A DNA stretch of 64,000 bases from Stx2-converting phage Stx2a_F451, in the sequence record AP012532, one strand, 5' to 3'. Each line of letters starts with the position of its first letter. Positions within the stretch are counted from its first letter, which is position 1. Below, piece by piece: positions 33,001 to 36,000 of this stretch. The position numbers are program-made.

Positions 33001-36000
33001 TTTTGCTGAAAAATGAGGTTTGCTTACATGGACGGATAACACGAAATCCTGCAAATTGGCAAAATGTAAGTGAATAAAGTCAAAACAGTTGTTTAACACT
33101 CAGGCACCGTAATGATGCCTTTGTCATTTCTGCGCATCTCACGCGCATCTCACAACACAGAACCTTTCAGGATGACCCTTGAGGATACCGGTTTGGCTGT
33201 CGGTGCCTTTCTGTGGGCTGGATTCCTGTGAGACAAGGTTCATCACTAAAAGGAAATAACCGATGAATATGATGGCCGTGCCGTTTCACGGCAACTCTCT
33301 TTATGTAGTTAACCATAATGGCGAACCATACGTTCCCATGAAACCTGTCGTTGCGGGGATGGGGCTGGCCTGGCAATCACAGTTGGCTAAGTTAAGACAG
33401 CGTTTTGCGTCAACTATAACGGAAATCGTTATGGTTGCTGAGGATGGGAAACAACGCAATATGGTGTCCATGCCACTTCGAAAACTTGCCGGCTGGCTAC
33501 AAACCATTAATCCCAACAAAGTAAAACCCGAAATCCGCGATAAGGTCATCCGGTATCAGGAAGAGTGCGACGATGTTCTTTACGAGTACTGGACGAAGGG
33601 TTTTGTCGTTAATCCCCGTAAAATGAGCGTGATGGAAGAACTCAACCAGGCTTGTGCTGACATGAAACGGGATAAAAACATTGCCAGTGTGTTTGCTACC
33701 GGGCTGAATGAGTGGAAACAGGTTAAAGCCGCGCATGTATCAAAAATCCGTACGCTGGTAAATGAAGCGAATATGCTGATTGATTTTGTCCTGGCTGATA
33801 CAGGCAAAGGGAAAATAACAAAGGCGGATTGATGGGGTGGCTAATGATATCAGATAAACTCATAACGCTGGTGAAGAGCCTCTGTGTACTTGTCGGCATT
33901 TCATTTTTAGTCATGCTGGTTGCCATTTTCTTTTCCACCGCCTGGCGAGTCCTGACGTTATCGGGACTGGTGGGGTGAAAGAGAGATGAACCGTGTTCTG
34001 TGTGTGGTGATTATTGTCCTGGCGGTTGGCTATGGTGCGCTGTGGCTGGCAACAAACCATTACCGTGACAACGCGCTCACCTACAAAGCGCAGCGCGATA
34101 AAAAAGCCAGAGAGCTGGAACAGGCGAATGCCACCATTACTGACATGCAGGTGCGCCAGCGTGATGTTGCTGCGCTCGATGCAAAATACTCGAGGGAGTT
34201 AGCCGATGCGAGAGCTGAAAATGAAACTCTGCGTGCTGATGTTGCCGCTGGTCGTAAGCGCCTGCGGATCAACGCCACCTGCTCCGGTACCGTGCGTGAA
34301 GCCACCGGCACCTCCGGCGTGGATAATGCAACCGGCCCCCGACTGGCAGACACCGCTGAACGGGATTATTTCATCCTCAGAGAGAGGCTGATCACTATGC
34401 AAAAACAACTGGAAGGAACCCAGAAGTATATTAATGAGCAGTGCAGATAGAGTTGCCCATATCGATGGGCAACTCATGCAATTATTGTGAGCAATACACC
34501 CGCGCTTCCAGCGGAGTATAAATGCCTAAAGTAATAAAACCGAGCAATCCATTTACGAATGTTTGCTGGGTTTCTGTTTTAACAACATTTTCTGTGCCGC
34601 CACAAATTTTGGCTGCATCGACAGTTTTCTTCTGCCCAATTCCAGAAACGAAGAAATGATGGGTGATGGTTTCCTTTGGTGCTACTGCTGTCTGTTTGTT
34701 TTGAACAGTAAACGTCTGTTGAGCACATCCTGTAATAAGCAGGGCCAGCGCAGTAGCGAGTAGCATTTTTTTCATGGTGTTATTCCCGATGCTTTTTGAA
34801 GTTCGCAGAATCGTATGTGTAGAAAATTAAACAAACCCTAAACAATGAGTTGAAATTTCATATTGTTAATATTTATTAATGTATGTCAGGTGCGATGAAT
34901 CGTCATTGTATTCCCGGATTAACTATGTCCACAGCCCTGACGGGGAACTTCTCTGCGGGAGTGTGCGGGGATAATCAAAAACGATGCACACCGGGTTTTC
35001 TCATTTTTCACGAGATGGGAGCGATTTCCCGCGAAGCCGCCTGTCCGGTGCGGTGGTGGAAGAAACCGGATAAAACAACCGCATTGTGCAAATATCGATC
35101 AAATATGGTGCTGCTGTGTGAAATCTGAAAAATCACAGCGGTCATTATGCATCAGTTTTTAACACAGGACGTCAGAACGTGACATGGCAAAGCTGGACTG
35201 GAAAAAGCTGGAGCAGGCATTCCGACGCGAACATGCCGAAACGGGAATAACATTACTGGACTGGTGCCGGAAGAAAAAGATTAATTACAACACCGCCAGA
35301 ACCCGTATAAAAATGGGCAAAATCGATCATGAAATTGATCATAAAACCGATCATGAAATCGATCATGACATCTCAGATGAAGAACCCTGCAATGACGCGG
35401 GTTCCGGCGATGAAAAATGTGCAAAAAACTCTGAAAAAAACTGCGCAAATTCGGCAGAAACGAAACGGATTCGTGGTTCCCGACTTTTACCACCTTCAAA
35501 CGCTTTTTCTCAGCGAAACACCCACGCCGTAAGACACCGTGGATATGCGAAGTATCTTGAGGCAGATAACCTCATGGATGATGCGTCCGACATGGTGCTG
35601 TTCGATGAACTGGTGTTCACCCGGGCCCGCGCACTTTCAGTAACTAAGGCACTTAAAGGGATGTTCGCCGACCTGGAAGAGGCAACTGACGTGGAAACCC
35701 GTGTTGCTCTTTACGACAAAATACTCAAAGCTGAACAGGCCCTTGACCGGAATATTGCCCGTATCGAGTCAATTGAACGCTCATTGCTGACGCTGGACGT
35801 CCTGGCTGAGACAGCACCAAAACTTCGTGCTGACCGGGAAAGAATCAACGCCGCCAGAGATAAACTCAGAGCTGAAACCGATATTCTGACCAACCAGCGT
35901 CGGGGCGTTGTTACGCCTGTCAGTGACATCGTGTCATCGCTGCATGAAATGAGTAATTCGGGGAGACTGGATGACATTCCGGAAGAATGAACCGCGATGT

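Follow-up and report, generated by a model that had tools for sequence, protein, structure and literature searches.

A 64,000-nucleotide stretch of the Stx2-converting phage Stx2a_F451 (sequence record AP012532; this whole stretch is called the window here) contains, within its small-terminase gene terS, four phased GATC-containing repeats that are probably the part of the packaging-initiation (pac) site recognized by the small terminase TerS. The array lies directly after the segment coding for a predicted helix-turn-helix (HTH) domain, and comparison with relatives suggests that it is a tandem, single-cluster variant of the phage P1 pac design and one member of a family of in-gene arrays, each matched to the recognition helix of its own TerS. 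A probability of roughly 0.6 is assigned to this reading. In P1 itself pac has seven TGATCA/G hexamers within pacA, and its Dam-regulated cleavage employs the PacA/PacB pacase together with IHF/HU; P1 pac sites that stay uncut are under-methylated.

The array occupies 35322-35369 on the plus strand, inside terS (35184-35990, plus strand), which encodes a 268-residue protein of the 933W L0112 type (phrog_370, E 5e-125). Since this gene matches its counterparts in 933W (L0112) and VT2-Sakai with 100% identity, the window represents a 933W-type Shiga toxin phage. The sequence-only reading from which this analysis started had placed four GATC motifs at exact 12-bp spacing in the small-terminase gene, and both the spacing and the location are borne out: the motifs start at 35325, 35337, 35349 and 35361. 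In order the units are ATCGATCATGAA, ATTGATCATAAA, ACCGATCATGAA and ATCGATCATGAC; they share the invariant core GATCAT and are translated as IDHEIDHKTDHEIDHD, TerS residues 47-62. Read as YGATCA the four units span 35324-35366, and one of them is an exact TGATCA. With Tandem Repeats Finder the repeat extends over 35320-35372, with a period of 12 bp and 4.4 copies. GATC is otherwise rarer than expected in the window (162 observed versus 257 +/- 14 in dinucleotide shuffles). Four GATC within 40 bp have p ~0.02 under uniform placement and were seen in 18 of 300 first-order Markov simulations, and GATCA-N7-GATCA occurs three times in the window, only at the array, against 0.23 expected. The clustering is thus only modestly significant; moreover tandem duplication explains the exact regularity, so that chance is not an informative null and the informative test is conservation across relatives. 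Looser clusters of three GATC are present elsewhere in the window, at 1868-1934, 27242-27308 and 56387-56453.

The position of the array in the protein is defined by an AlphaFold2 model built on 54 homologues. The N-terminal domain (residues 1-46, coded at 35184-35321, plus strand) is predicted to consist of three helices, 6-20, 24-31 and 35-41, with a predicted local distance difference test (pLDDT) of 86-89, and its assignment as an HTH rests on this model together with reciprocal profile matches to the P1 PacA family. Helix 3 supplies the predicted recognition helix Y35-K43 (YNTARTRIK), whose codons lie at 35286-35312 on the plus strand. Residues 46-106 (35319-35501, plus strand) are predicted to be a disordered linker (pLDDT <50) that is hypervariable in alignments, and residues 130-238 to form a long coiled coil. 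The array-encoded residues 47-62 are the very start of the linker, immediately after YNTARTRIK; because the array sits in disordered linker, protein constraint is low there. Alignments and model agree that TerS fits a module layout in which an MAK(L/P/T)DW... three-helix N-domain leads into a disordered linker. A Pfam search gave no family for TerS or TerL, a PDB sequence search gave nothing meaningful, and Foldseek of the TerS model against the PDB returned coiled-coil noise only.

The evidence that carries the pac assignment comes from TerS relatives drawn from GenBank phages, E. coli genomes, GTDB genomes, IMG/VR and a protein search. Every relative examined (about 90 distinct sequences) has a phased array of a short motif in the same place, gene nucleotides ~130-260, directly after the HTH-coding segment, and the motif follows the recognition helix without exception, residues 39-41 covarying with it. 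Helix A-R-R-[Y/H]-x-K is accompanied by TGCGCA (3-8 copies), A-K-R-[Y/H]-I-K by TGCGAA(T) (3-6 copies), G-A-I-R-K-x-A-K-K by GGTACGC (3-6 copies) and A-R-T-[R/Q]-I-K, the "ART" class of recognition helix defined by residues T40-R41, by (T/C)GATCA (2-7 copies). Mean copies were counted in gene nucleotides 106-330 of 84 distinct sequences classified for this purpose. In the ART class GATCAT averages 4.0, with TGCGAA and GTACGC both at 0; TGCGCA averages 6.0 in the ARR[YH] class, where other motifs are at <=0.03; TGCGAA averages 4.0 in the AKR[YH] class and GTACGC 4.5 in the GAIRK class. Cognate motifs therefore reach 4.0-6.0 copies versus <=0.03 for non-cognate ones, the sole exception being the 933W type with its roughly two distal TGCGCA. 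In the window the distal motifs are TGTGCA (35418) and TGCGCA (35442), 24 bp apart in a plus-strand segment at 35413-35447 within A5, A6 and A7 tracts at 35413, 35423 and 35434 that are phased at 10-13 bp. Such hexamers are inconsistently retained in the Salmonella ART (GATCA) lineage; the pair may be left over from a TGCGCA-type array or may form a second pac subsite.

The motifs fall in two to three reading frames; e.g. TGCGCA in one relative (L027) is read as S-A-Q, M-R-N and C-A, and GTACGC in GZ7 as V-R and G-T-Q. Counts of 4-6 compare with 0.4-0.8 expected under synonymous recoding, a roughly ten-fold excess, and the observed count is reached by no more than 5 of 500 recodings in 82 of the 84 sequences. 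For the ART class the figures are 4.0 observed versus 0.79 expected, with the same limit of 5 in 500 holding for 11 of 11 sequences. The several reading frames and the excess over synonymous recoding argue that the motifs are under selection as DNA and not as peptide. Spacings cluster near multiples of the helical turn, ~10.5-11 bp (9-14 bp, 12/21/33, 8+13). One relative (L007) joins a 933W-type HTH and array to a different C-terminal part. Because the N-module is seen on several unrelated TerS cores, HTH plus array appears to travel as a unit, i.e. as a mobile specificity cassette. In a set of genome loci (L022-L031) the MAKPDW... HTH and TGCGCA-array module, at gene nucleotides 1-330, is joined to small terminases of 232-338 residues whose core differs and which carry a second HTH-like segment (RFIAEYL...AAxRAGYS).

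The repeat is in frame and might have a function in the protein: an Asp/His-rich (IDHE)n segment could serve as a metal-binding or charged spacer, D-H repeats being able to chelate a divalent metal, and copy number alters linker length and could so tune TerS. This is highly improbable. The peptides that sister lineages have at this position (SAQK, ANSQK, GTQ/VRK) are unrelated to it, the model predicts disorder here, Salmonella relatives alternate D-Q and D-H, and between P1 and phage JK004 the peptide drifts with the hexamer kept.

The Salmonella relatives are prophages whose TerS is 57-60% identical to the 933W type and has the helix NTARTQIK. Their GATC motifs lie at gene offsets 142, 154 and 166 (and 178 and 190), which are exactly the 933W offsets, in units AGTGATCAAAAA, AGTGATCATAAA, AACGATCATGAA and AACGATCACAAT. 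Flanks differ from those of 933W and the peptide alternates D-Q/D-H, with the GATCA core kept and an exact TGATCA in three of five units; i.e. offsets and phasing are retained with a different peptide. ART[RQ]IK and YGATCA thus go together in the E. coli as well as in the Salmonella background. A near-isogenic Salmonella pair, whose N-domains share 40 of 46 residues, displays the switch directly: one member (L125) has helix ARRY and TGCGCA at 131/153/165/189, the other (L117) helix ARTQ and GATCA at 142/154/166, and the differences between them include recognition-helix residues 40 and 41. Within the 933W lineage, arrays have 2, 3, 4, 5 or 7 units; no unit of any allele departs from the GATCAT core, and unit flank positions 2, 3, 10 and 12 vary, including non-synonymous changes. 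The longest array seen, in an E. coli genome (L126; GCA_021288965.1, contig ABELII010000130.1), has seven GATC at exact 12-bp spacing in gene nucleotides 142-217 and arose by duplication of a three-unit block. A 933W-type TerS variant (P0002, which represents a protein cluster of 558 member sequences) has Ile for Thr at helix position 40 (NTARIRIK) with the four-unit D-H array unchanged, and is a naturally occurring protein in which the role of residue 40 could be examined.

These comparisons also bear on the proposal of a neutral microsatellite. On this view a 12-bp repeat prone to slippage lies in DNA coding for a disordered linker, and its GATC follows from Asp-His codons (GAT-CAY) without any function as DNA. 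Copy numbers of 2-7 among near-identical phages, the predicted disorder of the linker and the existence of GER2-type relatives without any GATC array all fit such a view, as does the fact that the units are recent duplicates and that the probability of GAT being used for all four Asp codons is not small. A neutral repeat is nevertheless unlikely, given that the diverged Salmonella lineage keeps the GATCA offsets despite different flanks and an alternating D-Q/D-H peptide, that all other lineages have co-located arrays in several frames at about ten times the synonymous expectation, that motif identity tracks the HTH helix exclusively, and that the GATCAT cores show zero synonymous changes as against the non-synonymous changes of the flanks.

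If the array is the TerS-recognition part of pac, its operation may be envisaged as follows. TerS is predicted to have an N-terminal HTH, a long disordered linker and then a coiled-coil oligomerization region, and in the DNA coding for the start of the linker a hexamer recurs at intervals of about one helical turn. The HTH domains of a single TerS oligomer could bind these copies cooperatively, and this binding would mark the concatemer for the first cut by TerL, after which headful packaging would follow. The hexamer of each lineage is matched to its own recognition helix; for the 933W lineage, with helix A-R-T-R-I-K, it is (T/C)GATCA, essentially the P1 pac hexamer TGATCA/G. Because this hexamer contains a Dam site within the groove that the helix must read, its methylation state would likely modulate binding or cleavage as in P1.

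The packaging mode of this phage group is compatible with such a role. Directly downstream of terS, on the plus strand, are terL (35971-37677; phrog_2 and phrog_38407), whose large terminase the literature classifies as 933W-type headful, and the gene of a P22-like portal protein (37677-39821; PF16510, E 1e-128). The virion DNA of 933W is reported to be terminally redundant, generalized transduction by the phage is efficient (PMC3752737), and its terminase has been classed as "headful (933W type)" (PMC7317114, PMC6029569). Fixed cohesive (cos) ends, which the sequence-only reading had held up as the contrary case, do not apply here because 933W-type phages are reported as headful packagers (PMC3752737, PMC7317114).

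A number of points weigh against assigning pac to the array. No mapped pac site or packaging start of 933W or another Stx phage was found in the literature searched. The units are recent tandem duplicates, whose identity within one array is weak evidence taken alone, and the range of 2-7 copies would also suit a tolerated microsatellite. The number of independent switches behind the covariation is small (some three or four classes), and since P1 combines an ARRY helix with a TGATCA hexamer, the two-residue code does not extend to P1. The efficient transduction of host markers by 933W (PMC3752737) suggests a loose pac specificity. There is also no second GATC cluster, the next GATC being at 35097 (228 bp upstream) and 36270 (~900 bp downstream), and the IHF consensus WATCAANNNNTTR finds no match with at most one mismatch between 34856 and 36168. 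To these must be added, on the methylation side, that several carriers of the phage-encoded dam gene are cos phages with unrelated packaging sites, that two phages with a GATC-type terS, Lyz12581Vzw and KIH15-140, have no homologue of it (PF05869) in their first 50 kb, and that methylation dependence is hypothetical and the phage Dam not specifically associated with the array. A link between GATC and terminase was likewise not found in the literature searched.

The lack of a second cluster and of an IHF site would also suit an array that TerS binds for autoregulation of terS or the late operon, or for nucleation of the oligomer, with the real pac cut signal elsewhere; the covariation establishes a cognate pair of HTH and array only and does not say what the binding achieves. 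Such a non-pac role for TerS binding is quite unlikely, since pac recognition is the canonical role of the TerS DNA-binding domain, the homologous arrangement in P1 is a pac site, and pac sites of the P22, Sf6 and SPP1 types are found in or beside terS.

The proposal that the array is a methylation-sensitive packaging site divides into two parts, of which the packaging part gains from the comparative evidence and the link to the phage's own Dam is not specific. An adenine methylase had been noticed at 20959-21486, and a plus-strand gene of the nin region there does encode a PF05869 "Dam"-family N6-adenine methyltransferase (E 6e-65) with the motif NNPPYS. However, this dam gene is a common passenger of the nin region, and copies with at least 97% nucleotide identity are present in HK97, lambda variants, 434, HK140, SfI and others. 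The co-occurrence of array and phage Dam was rejected as support for being non-specific: it carries little weight because the same gene sits in cos phages, and no homologue of it lies in the first 50 kb of two phages with GATC-type terS. Host Dam, moreover, is always present, so that a specific dependence on the phage-encoded enzyme would not be expected. A second adenine methyltransferase homologue, of the MT-A70 family, is encoded on the minus strand at 1322-1867 (tblastn, 98.9% identity to Lyz12581Vzw gp42, PF05063 MT-A70); this methylase is common to Lyz12581Vzw, KIH15-140, the window phage and the TGCGCA-type phage GER2. The sole argument for methylation sensitivity is a structural one, namely that a helix reading the GATCA core in the major groove would meet the N6-methyl groups at the very place of binding. 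By analogy with P1, Dam gating of packaging is plausible, and is put forward only tentatively.

Phased GATC might instead act through the host, as a SeqA site on hemimethylated DNA or as a Dam-dependent control of transcription, so that late expression or replication would be timed without any part being played by TerS. SeqA prefers arrangements of this kind, with GATC spaced by about one turn, and GATC is otherwise depleted in the phage. Published work ties host Dam to how stable 933W lysogeny is, and not to packaging (cited in PMC3342100). A SeqA element is very unlikely all the same: it leaves unexplained both the non-GATC motifs at the same place in sister lineages and the covariation of motif and helix, and the array is internal to a late gene. 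Each of the rival explanations considered here fails in that it leaves unexplained either the cross-lineage covariation or the drift of the peptide over a constant DNA core.

Phages of the 933W type spread Shiga toxin genes and transduce efficiently, with no mapped pac for them in the literature searched. A 48-bp pac candidate makes packaging initiation, as well as lateral and generalized transduction from Stx prophages, directly testable, and it also bears on the design of packaging-defective or phagemid systems. The match of helix to hexamer across the family amounts to a readable "recognition code" for small terminases, which could predict pac sites and packaging compatibility (e.g. of prophages and satellites) from sequence alone. 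A broader and more speculative suggestion is that a portable cassette, an HTH together with its own target hexamer in linker-coding DNA, determines the packaging specificity of many Enterobacterales prophages and of P1-like plasmophages. Residues 40/41 (R-Y versus T-R or T-Q) would then switch the core from CG (TGCGCA) to AT (TGATCA), and the AT version would create Dam sites that give the 933W and Salmonella lineages, like P1, a methylation-gated pac, timing or limiting the initiation cut. If the GATC versions are indeed methylation-gated, P1 is no longer an isolated case.

Other features of the locus may be noted. Between the lysis genes and terS are a P22_AR_N/ORF11CD3 antirepressor-like gene (33263-33832, plus strand) and a Bor lipoprotein homologue (34482-34775, minus strand), in the place where morons are usually found, immediately upstream of the proposed pac. 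Two kinds of sequence end in terS were considered and set aside. The records that end at terS nucleotide 786/787 (window 35970/35971) are the E. coli chromosomes NZ_CP111101.1, NZ_CP045712.1 and NZ_CP145694.1 and the phage records PV189402.1 and PV189407.1 (L001); because the ends fall exactly one base before the TerL ATG they look like a re-orientation artefact, probably of software that re-orients to terL, and were rejected as physical DNA ends. Truncated terS copies that end in or just past the array were rejected as scars of pac cleavage in favor of a single insertion of an IS3-family element (insertion sequence; end TGAACCGCCCCGGG), which sits 7 bp downstream of a three-unit GATC array in defective Stx2a prophages. 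The insertion, found in LC727854.1 (L123) and NZ_CP013029.1 (L124) at locus position ~2678, truncates terS and deletes head genes, and its breakpoint is common to at least eight phage records.

Among known packaging sites, the cosB R-sites of phage lambda are bound by the winged HTH of gpNu1, and the pacL and pacR boxes of SPP1 by G1P. Like the proposed 933W site these are phased copies of a short TerS-binding motif by the terminase genes in bent or A-tract DNA. They differ in position, most of them being upstream of terS or overlapping its start, in having other motifs and in containing no Dam site; the lambda R-sites, in addition, serve cos and not headful packaging. P22 and Sf6 offer a pac embedded in the terS coding sequence, in the case of P22 of a headful, generalized-transducing phage with the same type of portal. 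The P22 pac, however, is a single asymmetric sequence and no phased array, given as 22 bp in PMC11447400, and the TerS folds and DNA-binding domains are unrelated.

The closest counterpart is P1. The N-terminal ~100 residues of TerS match the P1 PacA family phrog_1711 (E 3e-5) in a profile search, and in the reciprocal search PacA residues 3-104 match phrog_370 (E 2e-4); BLASTP of TerS against PacA gives a weak match of 24% identity (E 0.009) over the N-terminal ~100 residues only. The two N-domains thus appear to be distantly homologous. In P1, pacA contains the annotated pac cleavage sites, flanked by GATC clusters at offsets 195/202/214/229 and 325/337/348. The clusters follow immediately on the HTH-coding part, and the hexamers are read in frame as I-D-H, N-D-Q, G-D-H etc. 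In Cronobacter phage JK004, whose PacA is 70% identical, TGATC[AG] hexamers keep the P1 offsets and the peptide drifts to NDQKRDQKKRDQ, the same signature as that of the 933W and Salmonella arrays. The 933W array shares with P1 its place in the small-terminase gene, immediately behind the HTH-coding segment, and its repeated hexamers with a GATC core (P1 spacing is 11-15 bp, with D-H/D-Q in frame), and a phage-encoded adenine methylase is also present in both. The P1 hexamers are described as Dam-dependent recognition elements of pac in PMC10028697. The 933W-type array differs from them in being single and uninterrupted, with an exact 12-bp period and 2-7 copies, as against two P1 clusters (4 + 3) that flank the cut, and the distal motifs of 933W terS are TGYGCA and not GATC. 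Outside residues 1-100 the two proteins are unrelated (268 versus 397 residues), the 933W TerL is of the "933W type" and is not PacB, and the recognition helix is ARTR in 933W and ARRY in P1. With its single GATC cluster and no IHF site, the 933W arrangement would therefore be a variant of the P1 design and not a copy of it.

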